Below, in pieces: positions 42,081 to 51,769 of a stretch of 64,000 nt of DNA. Under the pieces are notes generated by a model, which saw only the letters and a list, made by a program, of their open reading frames with translations, was not told the DNA's origin and searched no databases. Both the position numbers and the translations under genes were made by a program. Every line of letters begins with the position of its first letter. The first letter of the stretch is position 1. The stretch is from a virus (taxonomy: Duplodnaviria; Heunggongvirae; Uroviricota; Caudoviricetes), in the IMG/VR virus record IMGVR_UViG_3300043399_001190; one strand, 5' to 3'.

Positions 42081-42265
42081 ACTACGTAGAATCATTCTTA
42101 ACCATATCAATATACCAACTGAACCTATTCTCATTTATGTTAGGTATGGTATATACCCTATGTAATGTGCGCTGGGGTAACCAGTCAAAACTCTGGATGC
42201 ATGTAGTGATTTACACTATGTTCGTAGCATTGTATTATTTTGCGAAGAGTAATGGTTACGTATAA
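42077..42265 (+). CDS. small hydrophobic protein
   Basis: ORF track; last plus-strand gene before GC-rich cassette. Confidence 0.4.
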   Translation: MNYVESFLTISIYQLNLFSFMLGMVYTLCNVRWGNQSKLWMHVVIYTMFVALYYFAKSNGYV

Positions 42266-42440
42266 ATTTCGAAACTCCTCTGGAACCTCCTGGAAAAAAT
42301 TTTGAGGATGTGCTAGATAGAAAACTCGAAAATGTGCTGGGGCCTCCAGAAAATAAATTTTAGAAAAAAAGAGTTTGGGCCATAGGCGAAAATTACTTAC
42401 ATAGCGTTATTTTTAGCACACTGCTGCCATATTTTTAGAG

Positions 42441-42464
42441 CCAAAAAAGGGCGCCGAAGCGCCC
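42441..42464 (-). terminator. rho-independent terminator for the minus-strand cassette (GGGCGC-TTCG-GCGCCC + TTTTTTGG on minus strand)
   Basis: plus strand ccaaaaaagggcgccgaagcgccc; U-tract only on minus strand. Confidence 0.75.
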
Positions 42465-42486
42465 CTAAATCACTGCCAGCCCCAAC

Positions 42487-42585
42487 TTAAACCACTGCCC
42501 TCCACACCATCAGGTCCAGAGCAAGCACAACAGCCGCAGCCATACCAACCACCACGAAACCGATCATTTCTGCTTTAGTATACAT
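42487..42585 (-). CDS. 32-aa hydrophobic peptide MYTKAEMIGFVVVGMAAAVVLALDLMVWRAVV
   Basis: AAGGAG RBS 6 nt upstream on minus strand; single TM; last gene before terminator. Confidence 0.45.
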   Translation of the reverse strand: MYTKAEMIGFVVVGMAAAVVLALDLMVWRAVV

Positions 42586-42596
42586 TTGTTTACTCC

Positions 42597-42818
42597 TTAG
42601 GCGATTTCTTTACGAATTTGGGACTCTTGCAATTCAGCCTGACGCTTGGCTGCGGTGCTGAGGTCTTCAGCGAGGAAAACGAGGTCATCAAAGGCCTCGC
42701 GGGCAATCTGGCGGTCGTGGGCGTGTTCAGACTTTTCCAGATCACGGGTGGCATGGAACTTGACCAGAGCCTCGGCGTAACGGATAGCGGCTTGCTCAAC
42801 GGTGTGGTTCAGAATCAT
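42597..42818 (-). CDS. small helical protein (73 aa)
   Basis: ORF track; AAGGAG RBS; promoter copy A upstream. Confidence 0.55.
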   Translation of the reverse strand: MILNHTVEQAAIRYAEALVKFHATRDLEKSEHAHDRQIAREAFDDLVFLAEDLSTAAKRQAELQESQIRKEIA

Positions 42819-42845
42819 TTGGTGCTCCTTTGTTTCAGTGGTTGG

Positions 42846-42873
42846 ATTATGGCGGATCTGGTAGGAATGGCAA
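42846..42873 (-). promoter_or_regulatory. cassette promoter copy A (TTGCCA-16-CATAAT, minus strand)
   Basis: revcomp of tggattatggcggatctggtaggaatggcaa. Confidence 0.6.
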
Positions 42874-42909
42874 CTGTATACTTTAGTATTCCACCGGAGT
42901 GGTCAACCA

Positions 42910-43091
42910 TTACTTTTCAATACGGACGCACATGGGTTTTTTAGTGGTCATTGCCGGGCGGGCATCATCCACGGCCTTGTAGAGGGCTACGGCAGCCACC
43001 TCACACTTTTCCTTGGAGGAAAACTCCGGTCCCACGCTCCAAGTGCTGGCGTGACCAAGAACAACCAAAACCCAAACAATCGTGTTCATTT
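42910..43091 (-). CDS. 59-aa protein with signal-peptide-like N-terminus (MNTIVWVLVVLGHASTWS)
   Basis: not in ORF track (below cutoff); RBS AAGGAAACGAAATG; promoter copy B upstream. Confidence 0.45.
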
Positions 43092-43118
43092 CGTTTCCTT
43101 ATCTACTATGGAATGGAT

Positions 43119-43146
43119 TATGACAGGATCCGTGGATTTGGCAACC
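43119..43146 (-). promoter_or_regulatory. cassette promoter copy B (TTGCCA-16-TCATAAT) followed by 10-bp inverted repeat CCACTCCGGT/ACCGGAGTGG
   Basis: read directly. Confidence 0.65.
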
Positions 43147-43175
43147 ACTCCGGTATTGTTGACCGGAGTGGTGGA

Positions 43176-43382
43176 TTACTTGCCATCCTCCCATGTGCCT
43201 GTAGTATAATCCACGGCTTCCGCCACCACCTCACCATCCGGACCAAACTTGGTGTAAGAATAAAAGTTTACACCAACCACCTGAGTGTAATAACCTTTGG
43301 TTTCTTCCACCACTGACATTTCCACATCATATTCCCGGAGAAGGGCATGGAGCTTTTGTTTGAATTCTTCGGTTCTGGTCAT
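43176..43382 (-). CDS. hypothetical protein (68 aa)
   Basis: ORF track; AAGGAG RBS. Confidence 0.55.
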   Translation of the reverse strand: MTRTEEFKQKLHALLREYDVEMSVVEETKGYYTQVVGVNFYSYTKFGPDGEVVAEAVDYTTGTWEDGK

Positions 43383-43409
43383 CGTGTGCTCCTTCGAATC
43401 AATGGTTGG

Positions 43410-43437
43410 ATTATGACAGAATCCGTGGATTTGGCAA
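43410..43437 (-). promoter_or_regulatory. cassette promoter copy C
   Basis: ttggattatgacagaatccgtggatttggcaacca. Confidence 0.65.
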
Positions 43438-43445
43438 CCAGTGGG

Positions 43446-43805
43446 TTACAGAAGAACCTCTAGGTCCGAGTGGTCCAGGCGGTCCTCAGCCTCAAAGGTC
43501 TCCGGTTCAAACTCCATGAGCTTGGGAGCCTTGGGTTCAGCCTTAGGCTTCGCCGCCTTCACCACCTTGGCTGGCTTGACCTCCTTACGGAGCACCACGG
43601 TATGCGGCACCGGTTCTTGAACCACCTTCACACTCTCCAGCACCTGGCCAGGCTGGCCATACTTTTTATGGAAGAATGCATCCACCTTCTGCCAGGTCTT
43701 ACGGAAGGCCTCAGCCTTACCACCATACCAGCCTTCGAAACCATTCCGATCCTTGCGGAAAACAATGGTAAAATCGGGATAACGGACTTGGGCTTTACGT
43801 GCCAT
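43446..43805 (-). CDS. hypothetical protein (119 aa), basic Lys/Pro/Ala-rich middle
   Basis: ORF track; AAGGAA RBS. Confidence 0.55.
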   Translation of the reverse strand: MARKAQVRYPDFTIVFRKDRNGFEGWYGGKAEAFRKTWQKVDAFFHKKYGQPGQVLESVKVVQEPVPHTVVLRKEVKPAKVVKAAKPKAEPKAPKLMEFEPETFEAEDRLDHSDLEVLL

Positions 43806-43834
43806 TTTTGTTCCTTTAGTGTATAATTAAGAGT

Positions 43835-43921
43835 TTAACGGAGAGCCATGGCTAGAGCCAAACCCATGGCAATGCCGGACAGGTAGGTTGTAATGAAAAT
43901 GAGATTTTGAATTTTTTCCAT
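43835..43921 (-). CDS. 28-aa hydrophobic peptide MEKIQNLIFITTYLSGIAMGLALAMALR
   Basis: AAAGGAAACCAAATG RBS; promoter copy D upstream; embedded in spurious track ORF 43835..44230. Confidence 0.4.
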   Translation of the reverse strand: MEKIQNLIFITTYLSGIAMGLALAMALR

Positions 43922-43952
43922 TTGGTTTCCTTTCTGATTTACTATGGAATGG

Positions 43953-43980
43953 ATTCTACAGGTTCTGGAAGGTTTGGCAA
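43953..43980 (-). promoter_or_regulatory. cassette promoter copy D (TTGCCA-16-TAGAAT variant)
   Basis: ggattctacaggttctggaaggtttggcaa. Confidence 0.55.
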
Positions 43981-44012
43981 CCACGGTTGGAATAGTTGAC
44001 CAATCCGGTGGA

Positions 44013-44660
44013 TTATGCGGCCACTGCCAAGCGGATGACCTTCGCCATTTTCCGACCGTGGGCGGGGTAGCCGACCACTGCCACGGACTTATCGTAGCAG
44101 GCGCGGCAGCCGTTACACTTTCCACCATGATTGTAAGCACCGCAAACCGTAACGCCAGCGGGGACCGTATCGGCATCCGGCAGGATGGTGGAGCCATGCA
44201 CACCAGCGGTGAAGGTACCATCCACGGCATCGGAAGAAAACCGAACCATTACATTGTCCAGCCTTTGCATGGCGGCGATGATGGGCTGGAATTTAGGGAA
44301 TTTTGCCATGCGGGTCGGCAACCAATGCTTAACGTGAGGAGTGCCAGCCATAACCTGGTAGATTTTCTCAGCCAGCCCCAGGCTGTACATATCGCCGGAA
44401 TCAAACCAGCGGAAATACTTGGCTTTTTTGAGGGCTTGGATCATATCAGCCACCCAGCCATCCCGCTGCCAGTCTTCCTTATTGAAGGCGCGGGGAGCCT
44501 TGACCGTGGAGAATGCATACATTCCCGTGGTGGCGTAGCATCCAGAGCAGGCGGAGACCAGTTTACCATCGGAACCAACCGAACCAGGGCATGTCTCCAA
44601 GGCTTCCAGGGACCAGGATTGGATGCCGTCAAGCTTAGAGGTTTTGGAGAGCTTTACCAT
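44013..44660 (-). CDS. Cys-motif protein (CPGS..CSGCYA), possibly phage Gp37/Gp68 (DUF5131)-like
   Basis: track ORF 44013..44723 trimmed to MVKLSK start after promoter copy E and AAGGACA RBS; family call tentative. Confidence 0.45.
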   Translation of the reverse strand: MVKLSKTSKLDGIQSWSLEALETCPGSVGSDGKLVSACSGCYATTGMYAFSTVKAPRAFNKEDWQRDGWVADMIQALKKAKYFRWFDSGDMYSLGLAEKIYQVMAGTPHVKHWLPTRMAKFPKFQPIIAAMQRLDNVMVRFSSDAVDGTFTAGVHGSTILPDADTVPAGVTVCGAYNHGGKCNGCRACYDKSVAVVGYPAHGRKMAKVIRLAVAA

Positions 44661-44691
44661 TTGGTGTCCTTGTTGCGTTACGATGGAATGG

Positions 44692-44719
44692 ATTATGACA
44701 GAACCGGAGGTTTTGGCAA
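44692..44719 (-). promoter_or_regulatory. cassette promoter copy E
   Basis: ggattatgacagaaccggaggttttggcaacca. Confidence 0.65.
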
Positions 44720-44750
44720 CCATCCTAGGATAGTTGACCGGAAAAGGAGG

Positions 44751-44975
44751 TTATTCCTCCTCAGCCTCTTCCTCTTCCTCAAAGTGTTCCAGAAGTTGGT
44801 CCCAATCCACGGCGGAGAGGTTGACCATGTCCTTCAGGGGACCATCCGGCATATCGTCATATTGTTCCTCCAGCATGTAGCGGATGGACTCTACATCCTC
44901 ACGGGATTCCGGATTGCACCAGACATTGACCAACCAGGTTTCGCGGTTGGTCCAGCCATTGTAACCTTGAGACAT
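44751..44975 (-). CDS. small Trp-rich protein with poly-Glu C-terminal tail (EEEEEAEEE)
   Basis: ORF track; RBS AAAGGAAACGAAAATG; promoter copy F upstream. Confidence 0.55.
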   Translation of the reverse strand: MSQGYNGWTNRETWLVNVWCNPESREDVESIRYMLEEQYDDMPDGPLKDMVNLSAVDWDQLLEHFEEEEEAEEE

Positions 44976-45003
44976 TTTCGTTTCCTTTCAAACTATGGAA
45001 TGG

Positions 45004-45031
45004 ATTATGACAGAATCCGTGGAGATGGCAA
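45004..45031 (-). promoter_or_regulatory. cassette promoter copy F
   Basis: ggattatgacagaatccgtggagatggcaaca. Confidence 0.65.
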
Positions 45032-45034
45032 CAA

Positions 45035-45163
45035 TTATTTGGTTCTGATTTTAAGATAGAACCGTCCATTGTGGACGTATCCGCGGAGGAGACCAGGCAG
45101 CCCGTATTCCTTAGCCATGGCTCGCATGGCTTGGTAGTGGTTGGTTTTGTGTTTTTTCATCAT
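45035..45163 (-). CDS. 42-aa very basic peptide MMKKHKTNHYQAMRAMAKEYGLPGLLRGYVHNGRFYLKIRTK (possibly leaderless)
   Basis: track ORF 45035..45217 trimmed because its 5' part is the promoter repeat; ATG 7-10 nt after -10. Confidence 0.3.
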   Translation of the reverse strand: MMKKHKTNHYQAMRAMAKEYGLPGLLRGYVHNGRFYLKIRTK

Positions 45164-45170
45164 GGAATGA

Positions 45171-45198
45171 AGTGTAGCAGAGCCAGAGGATTTGGCAA
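45171..45198 (-). promoter_or_regulatory. cassette promoter copy G (degenerate -10 TACACT)
   Basis: ggaatgaagtgtagcagagccagaggatttggcaacca. Confidence 0.4.
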
Positions 45199-45362
45199 CC
45201 ATCTGGAAATGACCCACCGGATCGGTCGGGTACTGGTTGCCGGGGGTTCGGATTGTGGTATAATAGACTCATTCGAAAGCGGGACTGGGGTGGACACGGA
45301 GGCTGCGCGTCATTCCGCACTGTAATACTTCCGTACTACCGCCGGCGGAAGACGTTTGGACC

Positions 45363-45392
45363 ATTATAACATGCGGAGCAAAGCTTTGGCAA
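45363..45392 (-). promoter_or_regulatory. promoter copy H (TTGCCA-18-TATAAT) with downstream TTGACCGGA flank
   Basis: attataacatgcggagcaaagctttggcaacc. Confidence 0.45.
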
Positions 45393-45456
45393 CCAGTCTC
45401 AAAAATACTTGACCGGAACACTGTAATACTTTTTGAATACTTGCCATTCTCGCTGA

Positions 45457-45744
45457 TTGTGTCATAATAGCATTATTGAAACAACGAATGAAAGTAAAAG
45501 CATGAAAGTAGTACAATCGTATTCATCTAAAGAATGTAACGAATTTGATATTGTCGTCAATGATGTTAAAATTGCATATTATATTGAACATTTCAAAGAT
45601 GAAAATTGTAATGTTCTAGAAAAAACATTATATGAAATTTATTATGATTATAATGAAGAAGATGACGATTATACATCATCTTTTGCAACTGATGATTATA
45701 ATGAATTGCAAGACGTTATAGATTCAATTTACGAAAATCTGTAA
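45457..45744 (+). CDS. acidic hypothetical protein (real start may be MKVVQSY at 45502)
   Basis: ORF track. Confidence 0.4.
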   Translation: MCHNSIIETTNESKSMKVVQSYSSKECNEFDIVVNDVKIAYYIEHFKDENCNVLEKTLYEIYYDYNEEDDDYTSSFATDDYNELQDVIDSIYENL

Positions 45745-48959: not shown

Positions 48960-49205
48960 ATGATAAAAAATCGTTATGGCGATGAATATGAGTTTGTTCA
49001 CCTTGGTGAAAATATGTACACCATTAAAGGTGAACTAAACCATTGGCGCATGGGTGCTAAAGAAGGATGCACCGATTGGACCGACCTAGATTTTGTGGAT
49101 CCAAGTGGTGGTCCATTTATTCGTGTTGGTCATTATGAGATTGAAGGGCGTAAGGTGAAAAGTATCACCTCCTTTGGTTCTTCTTTTGTTTTTGAGGTGG
49201 AATAA
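48960..49205 (+). CDS. hypothetical protein
   Basis: ORF track. Confidence 0.4.
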   Translation: MIKNRYGDEYEFVHLGENMYTIKGELNHWRMGAKEGCTDWTDLDFVDPSGGPFIRVGHYEIEGRKVKSITSFGSSFVFEVE

Positions 49206-49381
49206 TGTTGCGAATGGTTTATATTTGGTTGGTTCTTTCAACTCTTATTTTCGGAGGAATCTATACTTGGCGAGAATTGAGTAACCGTGAAAAGTGGCAG
49301 TTGACAAAGATTGCCGCTTATGCTACAATCTGCTCTCTGTTGTCGGTTTTGATTCTTTCTTTTATTGTTGTTCTTTTCTGA
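49205..49381 (+). CDS. 58-aa two-TM peptide (MLRMVYIWLVLSTLIFGG...)
   Basis: not in track; ATG overlaps upstream stop (TAATG). Confidence 0.35.
   Translation: MLRMVYIWLVLSTLIFGGIYTWRELSNREKWQLTKIAAYATICSLLSVLILSFIVVLF
49301..49329 (+). promoter_or_regulatory. promoter TTGACA-17-TACAAT located inside the small TM gene, upstream of the SPFH gene
   Basis: ttgacaaagattgccgcttatgctacaat. Confidence 0.5.
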
Positions 49382-49388
49382 GGATTAT

Positions 49389-50183
49389 ATGAAACGTTTT
49401 GCTCTCTCTGCTCTTGTTGCTGCTTCGGTTCTTGCCACGGGTTGCACCCGAATTGAGACTGGTGAGGTTGGTGTCCGCGTTGGTTTTGACAAGCAGGTCA
49501 AACCTGGTGAACTCCTGCCTGGCTCTTTTAACCAGGTTCTGGTTGGTGACGTTCTGACGTTCCCCGTCAAGGACGTTAACGTGGTGCTGGAGAATATGAC
49601 GCCAGTGGCTAAGGACAATTCCACGATGGCTGACCTTGATGCCGTGGTTGTTTATAATATTAACCAAAATCAAGTTGCGGAACTTTATAGTTCCAAGAAT
49701 AAGAGTTTTCATGCTGAAAGCAAAGGTGATGTTTATCTGATGTACAATTACATTGTGCAAAATGCACGTAATGCAATTTACAAGGCTGCACGTAAATACG
49801 AAGCCCTTGATATGGCAGATAATCGTACTGAAATGGAAAACTTCATTAAAGATGAAATTATCCGTAATCTTGCCGAGGAGAAGCTTGACGGTAGTTTGAA
49901 TATTACTCAAGTTATGATTCGTAATGTAGTTCCCGCACCAAGTGTTGTAGCATCGGCCAATGAATTGGTGCGTTCTAAGAATGAACTGAAACAAAAAGAA
50001 GTTGAAGTTAAAACGGCTGAAGCTGAATCTCGGCGTATGGCTGCACTAGCCAATAACTCTGCTAGTTCTATTGCATTTATGAATGCACAGGCTGCACTGA
50101 ATATCTCCGAAGGTATTAAGAATGGTAAGGTACAAACGATTGTCGTTCCAAGTAATATGACCAGTCTGATGCTGCCGAAGTAA
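49389..50183 (+). CDS. SPFH/band-7 (HflC/prohibitin-like) lipoprotein
   Basis: MKRFALSALVAASVLATGC lipobox; SPFH-like core then coiled coil; GC-shifted codon use; track ORF 49365 trimmed. Confidence 0.6.
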   Translation: MKRFALSALVAASVLATGCTRIETGEVGVRVGFDKQVKPGELLPGSFNQVLVGDVLTFPVKDVNVVLENMTPVAKDNSTMADLDAVVVYNINQNQVAELYSSKNKSFHAESKGDVYLMYNYIVQNARNAIYKAARKYEALDMADNRTEMENFIKDEIIRNLAEEKLDGSLNITQVMIRNVVPAPSVVASANELVRSKNELKQKEVEVKTAEAESRRMAALANNSASSIAFMNAQAALNISEGIKNGKVQTIVVPSNMTSLMLPK

Positions 50184-50188
50184 TTATA

Positions 50189-50210
50189 GGGACCGAAAGG
50201 TCCCTTTTTT
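50189..50210 (+). terminator. rho-independent terminator GGGACC-GAAA-GGTCCC-TTTTTT
   Basis: read directly after SPFH stop. Confidence 0.85.
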
Positions 50211-50221
50211 GGAGTTTAATA

Positions 50222-50398
50222 ATGAATAAAGAACATTATTTTGTATATCTCGACAATCTCCGAGAATCTGGTGAAACCAATATGTTTGGTGCTGCACCAT
50301 ATCTTGCTGATGTTTTTGAATTAACAAAGCAAGAGGCTCATGATATTCTATTGCAATGGATGCAAACATTTGATGAGCGACACAAGACAAAACATTAA
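50222..50398 (+). CDS. 58-aa hypothetical protein (below track cutoff)
   Basis: ATG after terminator, MNKEHYFVYLDNLRESGE... Confidence 0.3.
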   Translation: MNKEHYFVYLDNLRESGETNMFGAAPYLADVFELTKQEAHDILLQWMQTFDERHKTKH

Positions 50399-50548: not shown

Positions 50549-51046
50549 GTGTACGATACTGATTGGAATAATATGACAGATAAACCTAAATGCTATCAAC
50601 TCATTGGTATACCTGGCTCAGGTAAATCTACATGGGCAGAAAAAATGGGGCAAGTTATGCATTATACCTCAATAGTTTCAACCGATATGTGGGTTGAAAT
50701 GGAGGCTGAGCGTGTTGGTAAAACATACACTGAAGTTTTCCAAGATTATATGCCCAAGGCTGTAGAATTGATGGCTAATCAGGTTGGCCTGTTGCGTGAT
50801 ATTAAGAGTAATATTATCTGGGATCAAACCTCCACGACCATTGCAAGTCGCAAAAAGAAATTCAATATGTTGCCCAATTATGAGCATATTGCTGTAGTGT
50901 TTAAAACACCATCTGAAGATGAATTGAAGAAACGATTGGCTTCACGACCAGGTAAAGAAATACCATGGGAAGTGGTGCAGAGTATGATTAACCGGTTTGA
51001 AGAACCAACTATTGAAGAGGGCTTCAAAGAGATTTGGAGAGTTTAA
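50549..51046 (+). CDS. polynucleotide 5'-kinase-like P-loop kinase (T4 Pnk kinase domain only, no phosphatase domain)
   Basis: LIGIPGSGKSTWAEK closely matches T4 PNK N-terminus TIGCPGSGKSTWAREF; 165 aa. Confidence 0.55.
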   Translation: MYDTDWNNMTDKPKCYQLIGIPGSGKSTWAEKMGQVMHYTSIVSTDMWVEMEAERVGKTYTEVFQDYMPKAVELMANQVGLLRDIKSNIIWDQTSTTIASRKKKFNMLPNYEHIAVVFKTPSEDELKKRLASRPGKEIPWEVVQSMINRFEEPTIEEGFKEIWRV

Positions 51047-51507
51047 GAATGAGAGATTATGAAAAATACCAGGCTTTTGAAAAAGAAATGCACGAAAAGT
51101 ATCCGAAAATCTTTTCGCAACCTTATGGTGGGTTTGCCATTGGTGAAGGCTGGTATCAAATTATCCGATCCTTGTGTGAGAATATCCAATCGAGAATTGA
51201 TTCGGTTGAATGTTATAGAAACCAATTGATTCTGCGGAATCCACATAATAACCCACTGCCCGAACCTATCGAACAGGTTGTGGTTGAACAAATTAAAGAA
51301 AAATTTGGTGGGCTACGGTTTTACTACCAAGGTGGTGATGAGAAAATCTCTGGCATGGTACATATGGCGGAATCGTGGGCGGAACATACTTGCGAAACTT
51401 GTGGTAGTGTAGGCTCAAACCGTAGCATTGGGGGTTGGTTGACAACTCTATGCGATACCCATTATAATGAACGACTTGAACAATTTAAGGAACGCAATCG
51501 TGCATGA
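51034..51507 (+). CDS. hypothetical protein with C-terminal Cys cluster (CETCG...C)
   Basis: ORF track. Confidence 0.4.
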   Translation: MESLRMRDYEKYQAFEKEMHEKYPKIFSQPYGGFAIGEGWYQIIRSLCENIQSRIDSVECYRNQLILRNPHNNPLPEPIEQVVVEQIKEKFGGLRFYYQGGDEKISGMVHMAESWAEHTCETCGSVGSNRSIGGWLTTLCDTHYNERLEQFKERNRA

Positions 51508-51769
51508 GAAAACCAAGAAACTAGCCGAAGAGTCTGGCTTTATATTTTGGGCAGATGAAGATTGGAAACCAGAAGGTGAAGTAATCGACTGGTCTTCCAA
51601 TTATGATAATGAATTGGAAAATCTAGTTGAATTGGTTGTGCAAGAATGCATATCACAAATTGCATTAGTTGGTATTTCCAATTTTGAAAATGATGACCAT
51701 GGTGATATTTCTTGGACCGTATCAAAGTGTATTGAAATGATTCAGAAAAAATTTGGAGTAAAAGAATGA
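51467..51769 (+). CDS. member 3 of paralogous small-protein family
   Basis: KTKKLAEESGF...LVELVVQECI...KKFGVKE. Confidence 0.45.
   Translation: MNDLNNLRNAIVHEKTKKLAEESGFIFWADEDWKPEGEVIDWSSNYDNELENLVELVVQECISQIALVGISNFENDDHGDISWTVSKCIEMIQKKFGVKE

Follow-up and report, generated by a model that had tools for sequence, protein, structure and literature searches.

In this work, we analyzed a 64,000-nucleotide stretch of DNA from the IMG/VR virus record IMGVR_UViG_3300043399_001190 (referred to below, at its full length, as the window), and within it a gene for an SPFH/Band-7 lipoprotein (49389..50183, + strand, 264 aa) together with the micro-gene located directly upstream (49205..49381, + strand), which codes for a 58-aa protein with two transmembrane (TM) helices. 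The micro-gene is conserved in related phages and carries, within its coding sequence, a promoter-like site held at synonymous positions. We tentatively propose, with a confidence somewhat below even, that the two genes constitute an envelope module combining an early, periplasm-facing SPFH ring or cage, a two-TM partner, and additional transcripts for the scaffold alone; our confidence in any particular purpose of such a module is lower. The SPFH family of phages (PHROG 200) is already known, and SPFH open reading frames (ORFs) were listed for the T4-like phages 44RR, Aeh1, and RB43 in 2006 (PMC1524935). New are the conserved putative promoter carried inside the micro-gene in the clade of the window phage and, as a suggestive observation, the recurrence of the two-TM and SPFH pair in four distant lineages of phage SPFH genes.

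The ORF of the SPFH protein extends over 49365..50183, and the ATG at 49389 was taken as its realistic start; a Shine-Dalgarno sequence (GAGGA, 49380..49384, + strand, read from the sequence) lies 4 nt before this codon. The encoded protein consists of a signal peptide with a lipobox (residues 1-19), an SPFH domain (approximately 21-183), two long C-terminal helices (184-244), and a C-terminal GKVQTIVVP motif. Its N-terminus (MKRFALSALVAASVLATG, followed by Cys19, codon 49443-49445) combines a basic n-region (MKR), a hydrophobic h-region (FALSALVAASV), and the lipobox LATG-C, and it is thus predicted to be lipidated at Cys19. This cysteine is invariant in the alignment A2, and a lipobox was found in 68 of the 80 full-length family representatives, the remaining ones having an N-terminal TM anchor.

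The first-pass annotation of this DNA had proposed an SPFH fold, and this was borne out. The protein matched the Pfam family Band_7 (PF01145) with an E-value of 5.5e-18 (66.1 bits against a cut-off of 23.6; profile positions 2-175 of 176) and the PHROG family phrog_200, annotated as "lipoprotein" (E-value 1.1e-32, 114.6 bits, residues 1-234). A single-sequence phmmer search of PDB with this protein retrieved no SPFH chain, hence a profile was needed; the one built from 47 diverse homologues reached HflK (4e-6), prohibitin-2 (1.5e-5), and also QmcA and stomatin. The AlphaFold2 monomer model (mean predicted local distance difference test score, pLDDT, of 83.7) consists of the SPFH domain followed by helices 184-222 and 224-244, and Foldseek aligned it with full-length prohibitin, HflK/C, stomatin, erlin, and QmcA in PDB (probability 1.0, E-values down to about 1e-12, 240-300 aligned columns). 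Judging by this model, the window protein belongs among the full-length SPFH proteins of the type that forms cages, and the conserved C-terminal GKVxTIVVP motif, together with the helices, suggests that it may assemble into a ring or cage on the membrane.

An exhaustive homologue search (50%-identity representatives, E-value ≤ 0.001) resulted in only 312 clusters, nearly all of them of 260-285 aa, which indicates that the SPFH lipoproteins form a small, distinct subfamily. Amongst isolated phages, 190 records were matched by tblastn, mostly Kuttervirus, other Salmonella/Escherichia phages, and Acinetobacter phages; among the matches listed, identities were 26-45% over 75-92% of the protein, and the nearest isolate was the freshwater Synechococcus phage BUCT-ZZ01 (45%). 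Metagenomes yielded 5,494 homologues, the best 120 of which were 86-100% identical to the window protein, including an identical copy on a 179-kb contig. Within the large phage clade of the window (442 IMG/VR stretches), the SPFH gene is a conserved core, with a median pairwise identity of 85%. The best 80 of these 442 stretches (80-92% identity) were kept as related loci; bacterial loci were found with the narrower alignment A2. The annotated family of the window protein, phrog_200, comprises lipoproteins of Ackermannviridae/Kuttervirus, Acinetobacter phages, Schitoviridae GIB1, and RaK2-like jumbo phages, which share its length, lipobox, and C-terminal helices and, in Kuttervirus and AbTZA1, also the small two-TM gene upstream. 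The clade of the window differs from them in its distance from the nearest isolate and in the clade-specific putative promoter written into the partner gene.

The micro-gene, predicted in the first-pass annotation as well, is indeed present at 49205..49381; its ATG overlaps the stop codon of an upstream 81-aa ORF (ATAATG). Its product (MLRMVYIWLVLSTLIFGGIYTWRELSNREKWQLTKIAAYATICSLLSVLILSFIVVLF) is composed of two hydrophobic helices flanking a basic loop and ends with ...VVLF, without a charged tail. It matched no Pfam family above the threshold and no PHROG family. A gene of the same length was found at the same position in 61 distinct related cassettes, and it can therefore be regarded as a real gene. 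The two proteins evolve at different rates within this clade (median pairwise identity of 43% for the micro-protein and 85% for the SPFH protein), and the features kept in the micro-protein are its length, the M-I-K/R start, the G-K-E-x-W-x-L-T-K loop, Y-S-I, and the terminal L-F. The distance between the two genes is either 6-19 nt (7 nt in the window) or 81-103 nt. The longer spacing, found in about 24 of the 61 cassettes and absent from the window, holds a third tiny ORF of approximately 28 aa with one TM helix (e.g., MINDRWLRPLYFALGFVVCFYLFSTGVI), located downstream of the embedded promoter-like site (examples are loci L008, L011, L017, L025, L039, and L072).

The promoter-like site lies in codons 33-42 of the micro-gene (49301..49329, + strand) and matches the sigma-70 consensus at 11 of 12 positions, with the -35 box TTGACA (49301-49306), a 17-nt spacer, and the TG-extended -10 box TACAAT (49324-49329); the first-pass annotation had named a TTGACA-17-TACAAT promoter inside this gene. 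The window has six occurrences of the motif TTGACA-N17-TAHAAT, as against 0.12 expected, and none of 100 shuffles reached six, which indicates that the window phage uses such promoters. A TTGACA-17-TATAAT-like site was present at identical micro-gene codons in nearly all relatives, and codon usage at this site is strongly constrained: Leu33 is encoded by TTG in 53/53 cases (35% elsewhere in these genes), Thr34 by ACA in 42/54 (23% elsewhere), and Ile41 by ATA in 47/47 (5.8% elsewhere), while the third base of codon 40 is T in 59 of 61. Nearby conserved residues are free at their synonymous sites (Ile19 is encoded by ATT in 28, ATC in 20, and ATA in 11 cassettes, and Gly27 by four codons). As the synonymous sites are held, above all in the Leu33 and Ile41 codons, the embedded element is probably a working promoter under selection. 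Transcription from it would start near 49336 and would yield the SPFH protein without its partner, presumably early in infection, since a promoter of the sigma-70 type suggests early rather than late expression. In the more distant contig L177 (60% GC), whose SPFH gene is also preceded by a two-TM peptide gene, this peptide contains W-T-L-T-K, with L-T-K encoded by CTG ACG AAG and without the promoter. The motif is thus constrained at the protein level; the peptide motif appears to be older, and the promoter would have been overlaid on it in the clade of the window.

Peptides of a comparable architecture precede the SPFH gene in four distant lineages, i.e., (i) the T4-like clade of the window with BUCT-ZZ01 (58 aa, two TM helices), (ii) the S-CREM1 clade (53-54 aa, two TM helices), in which the SPFH protein is TM-anchored, (iii) the Kuttervirus/L177 group (in Kuttervirus 69 aa, two TM helices, with the stop codon overlapping the SPFH start), and (iv) the AbTZA1 group (AbTZA1 and a relative; 90-93 aa, two to three hydrophobic segments). 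Moreover, a 60-aa two-TM ORF lies upstream of the SPFH gene in a few Roseateles/Burkholderiaceae chromosomes, and in one family representative (P0223) a segment composed of a TM helix, a basic loop, and a second TM helix is fused directly to the SPFH domain, which implies the same topology as that proposed below for the two-gene form.

Based on these observations, we propose the following model of a two-gene envelope module, which a lytic T4-like phage would produce early in infection. In it, the SPFH protein would leave the cytoplasm, receive a lipid at Cys19, and face the periplasm, and its C-terminal helices would most likely build a ring or cage fencing off a patch of the membrane, as in other full-length SPFH proteins. 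The TM-anchored homologues imply the same periplasmic orientation as the lipobox form. The 58-aa protein would be its dedicated inner-membrane partner, with the basic loop predicted to be cytoplasmic and both ends periplasmic, so that its C-terminus would sit next to the point where the SPFH protein is anchored by its lipidated N-terminus. Both proteins would be made from transcripts that read through from early promoters further upstream, and the embedded promoter would add SPFH-only transcripts, keeping the scaffold in excess over the partner. Such a module would most likely serve to modify or strengthen the envelope of the host, acting from the periplasm, e.g., by blocking superinfection or by stabilizing the membrane until lysis; we give a lower probability to the control of FtsH or a similar membrane protease. 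Among known systems, T4 encodes an early superinfection-exclusion pair consisting of Imm, a small inner-membrane protein, and Sp, a periplasmic one. Together with the Llp/Cor-type lipoproteins of T5, they resemble the proposed module as early small inner-membrane and periplasmic or lipid-anchored envelope proteins, and the analogy concerns location and timing alone.

Several points weigh against this proposal. In E. coli, the residue at position +2 after the lipidated cysteine governs sorting, and threonine at this position directs lipoproteins to the outer membrane, i.e., away from an inner-membrane partner; the window protein has Thr there, and its counterparts in enterobacterial and Acinetobacter phages have Gly or Ser. 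Homologues with a TM anchor, and the alpha-helical nature of the partner, argue for the opposite, inner-membrane location. An SPFH protein of a Pasteurella prophage, which may or may not be related to this family, was found in outer-membrane vesicles (PMC9872710). In the Acinetobacter phage Mithridates, a soluble upstream neighbour stands in place of the two-TM peptide, and most bacterial homologues are solitary genes. The homology of the partners between clades is suggested by their architecture, their position, and the W-x-L-T-K motif of L177; BLASTP of the phage partner peptide against the Roseateles peptide gave no match, and small two-TM ORFs may also lie upstream of other genes in these genomes. 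The cross-clade claim is therefore suggestive. Superinfection exclusion is proposed by analogy only, and the role of phage SPFH proteins has been termed "poorly understood" or "unclear" (PMC7760394, PMC13239085).

The strongest of the competing explanations is that the protein acts as an HflK/C-type regulator, i.e., that host FtsH, or a different membrane protease, is enclosed on its periplasmic side by the phage SPFH cage, which alters the turnover of host or phage membrane proteins. The first-pass annotation had leaned this way by calling the gene product an HflC-like SPFH lipoprotein; the SPFH fold and the lipobox stand, and the HflC label does not. HflK was the best PDB profile match (4e-6), and HflK/C-FtsH and prohibitin complexes were among the top fold matches. 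These matches are generic for the superfamily, however, as similar scores were obtained, both by profile and by fold, for prohibitin, HflK, stomatin, erlin, and QmcA, the last three lying within one or two orders of magnitude. An NCBIfam scan of the SPFH protein returned no family at E-value ≤ 1, and so no HflC or HflK model. The phage gene is also single, being flanked by the 58-aa two-TM gene and an unrelated 58-aa gene, with no hflK/hflC pair, and its product is anchored by the lipobox cysteine and not by a TM helix. Given the lack of an NCBIfam match, the near-equal scores of the subfamilies, the lipid anchor, and the single gene, we consider it, from its sequence, a generic SPFH protein and not a specifically HflC-like one. 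With E. coli HflK/HflC-FtsH it shares the SPFH fold with long C-terminal helices and, as predicted, the periplasmic side of the SPFH domain (the SPFH domain of HflK/C sits in the periplasm); identity in structural alignments is only about 13-17%, and the K/C pair and TM anchor of E. coli contrast with the single gene and lipid anchor of the phage. Furthermore, sorting to the outer membrane, should it occur, would preclude the caging of FtsH, and no FtsH-dependent decision is known in strictly lytic T4-like phages. In view of these arguments, we regard regulation of FtsH as improbable, even though it is the best of the alternatives.

A formal parallel to the proposed module is offered by the SPFH-NfeD operons (e.g., QmcA-YbbJ, PDB 8z5g; stomatin-STOPP), in which the neighbour of the SPFH gene likewise encodes a small membrane protein, with helices that could occupy the enclosed membrane patch; QmcA was the Foldseek match of rank 23. 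The 58-aa partner differs in having neither the NfeD OB-fold nor a protease domain (no Pfam match), and QmcA faces the cytoplasm whereas the phage SPFH protein is predicted to face the periplasm. An NfeD identity of the 58-aa protein was rejected, as its only Pfam matches were the sub-threshold YwiC and DHHC, neither of which is an NfeD family. On a 356-kb relative (L001), a ClpP-type protease gene with a weak NfeD1b_N match (676-1293) is located approximately 5 kb upstream of the SPFH gene. A link to such a protease was dismissed, since this was seen in L001 alone and a scan of ten window ORFs between 40 and 56 kb found none. A broader version of our proposal can also be formulated, which we consider speculative and rather unlikely to hold in full: the pair would be an ancient, mainly phage-borne two-gene module, a minimal counterpart of the SPFH-NfeD and HflKC systems, whose early cage on the periplasmic face would exclude superinfection or hold the envelope together until lysis, and in which, within the clade of the window, the conserved L-T-K and S/A-I codons of the partner were recruited as the -35 and -10 boxes.

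Another explanation, which we see as having only a slim chance, is the control of lysis, with the two-TM peptide acting like a holin or antiholin and the SPFH lipoprotein sequestering or timing it, or acting in a spanin-like manner. Small two-TM proteins adjoining a lipoprotein gene do look like lysis cassettes, and the micro-protein gave a weak match to the 2TM effector model of PADLOC (E-value 0.032). This match is explained by hydrophobic composition; the PADLOC scan gave no defence-model match for the SPFH protein, and membership of the pair among anti-phage defence proteins was not supported. Lysis control is further disfavoured by the uncharged C-terminus of the micro-protein, by the lack of an adjacent endolysin gene, by the sigma-70-type promoter with its suggested early expression, and by the 264-aa SPFH fold, which is unlike o-spanins.

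It might also be supposed that the gene is a passenger traded with bacteria, bringing no infection-specific benefit. Chromosomal copies with 50-68% identity occur in Comamonadaceae, other Burkholderiales, Bdellovibrio, and Leptospiraceae, and those with 62-68% (Bdellovibrio L087-L092; Comamonadaceae L086, L094, and others) are closer to the window protein than that of any isolated phage, the nearest of which shows 45%. We find the passenger explanation very hard to accept, because the gene keeps its median identity of 85% across hundreds of phage contigs while the neighbouring genes turn over, and it has a dedicated putative promoter kept at synonymous sites. Its base composition speaks against it as well. 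The first-pass annotation had described the gene as GC-shifted and hence probably acquired. The shift is real but small (GC of 0.429 against the window mean of 0.378, i.e., the 93rd percentile of equal-sized windows), and acquisition is not upheld: the GC content at third codon positions (GC3, 0.377) equals the window mean and is thus native to the phage, the excess resides in codon positions 1 and 2 and so reflects amino-acid composition and not foreign origin, and the gene belongs to the conserved core of a large phage clade. In many bacterial loci the SPFH gene is poorer in GC than its surroundings, the difference reaching up to about 0.13, which hints, if anything, at transfer from phage to bacterium. 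Bacterial neighbours were of no help in assigning a function, as they follow no consistent pattern (gspF in some Rhodoferax, genes of LysR-type regulators or hydrolases elsewhere, and a solitary gene in Bdellovibrio).

The least likely explanation, a virion-associated SPFH protein packaged in or attached to particles, draws on mass spectrometry of purified virions of Vi01-like phages (3 retrievals; PMC10892097) and of Eneladusvirus (PMC7760394), and can be largely set aside. The Vi01-like count of 3 compares with 196-311 for structural proteins, which is what carry-over of membrane would produce. The protein also bears a signal peptide and a lipobox, and its gene lies amid small early-type ORFs, behind a sigma-70-type promoter and far from structural modules.

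These findings overturn no current views. In large lytic phages that infect Gram-negative hosts, genes for SPFH lipoproteins rank with the more widespread of those still unexplained; some twenty years of annotation have brought them no assigned function. The proposed module offers several handles for experiment: a putative dedicated small membrane partner, a likely early sigma-70-type promoter suggesting the timing, and tractable orthologues with the same two-gene layout (Kuttervirus, AbTZA1, and RB43-type phages). The probable promoter in conserved codons would also be a clean example of dual coding, visible through constraint on synonymous sites.

The SPFH gene is followed by an intrinsic terminator (50188..50210, + strand; AGGGACC-GAAA-GGTCCCT and then six T residues), whose hairpin (50188-50205) has a 7-pair stem with five G-C pairs and a GAAA loop (-13.3 kcal/mol, z = -2.5). 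The "strong terminator" of the first-pass annotation is thus present in the window, but it is not part of a conserved SPFH unit: a hairpin follows the gene in about 8 of 65 related loci, most loci run straight into the next gene (TAATATG), and the downstream genes differ among the relatives. Directly past the terminator, the window has a gene for another 58-aa protein (50222-50398, starting with ATG 50222) with its own ribosome binding site; as no promoter-like site precedes it, this gene probably relies on readthrough of the terminator. Its product gave a weak, below-threshold match to Pfam DUF5049, and related phages have other genes at this place.

Short genes of the prepilin type (with an N-terminal methylation motif) were observed 1-2.5 kb downstream of the SPFH gene in five of 85 loci (L001, 7385-7660; L024, at about 4799; L038, L043, and L071), and in some Rhodoferax genomes the SPFH gene comes after an apparent gspF. 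A link to pilin-like (N_methyl) proteins had been prompted by the adjacent ORF097c and ORF098c of phage 44RR (PMC1524935); it was rejected because of the low frequency of such genes near SPFH and their absence from the window.

Regarding the genomic background, the window is, by its gene content, a piece of a large T4-like phage genome, and the phage-borne character of the SPFH gene, as first annotated, was confirmed. The window encodes a T4-type DNA polymerase (PHROG 262; 50% identity to the polymerases of Synechococcus and Prochlorococcus myophages), ribonucleotide reductase (RNR), a CobS-like ATPase, and a CobT-like peptidase. Megablast searches of 50,697 phage records with the SPFH locus and with its 24-kb surroundings gave no match, which means that the window phage has no close sequenced relative. 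The neighbourhood of the SPFH gene consists of tightly packed small ORFs on the + strand with several sigma-70-like promoters. One of these sites, a perfect 12/12 match (TTGACA-18-TATAAT, 51439-51468), sits where ORF 51034-51507 ends, overlapping the beginning of ORF 51467-51769, and it constitutes a second promoter-like element embedded in an upstream coding sequence within this early-type region.

Finally, a GC-rich island (42100-45470; GC of 0.50-0.55 against the window mean of 0.378) with minus-strand genes was distinguished, including a gene for a Pfam GP88 protein (44013-44723, - strand). It contains at least six copies of a repeat of about 57 nt (starting at 43089, 43382, 43925, 44664, 44976, and 45143), spaced among the minus-strand genes, whose reverse complement has the form of a sigma-70-like extended -10 promoter, TTGCCA-16-(TGT)CATAAT. 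An inverted, rightward-pointing copy is present at 45441-45468. We take these repeats to resemble the mobile promoter cassettes (PeSL) in variable regions of T4-like phages.

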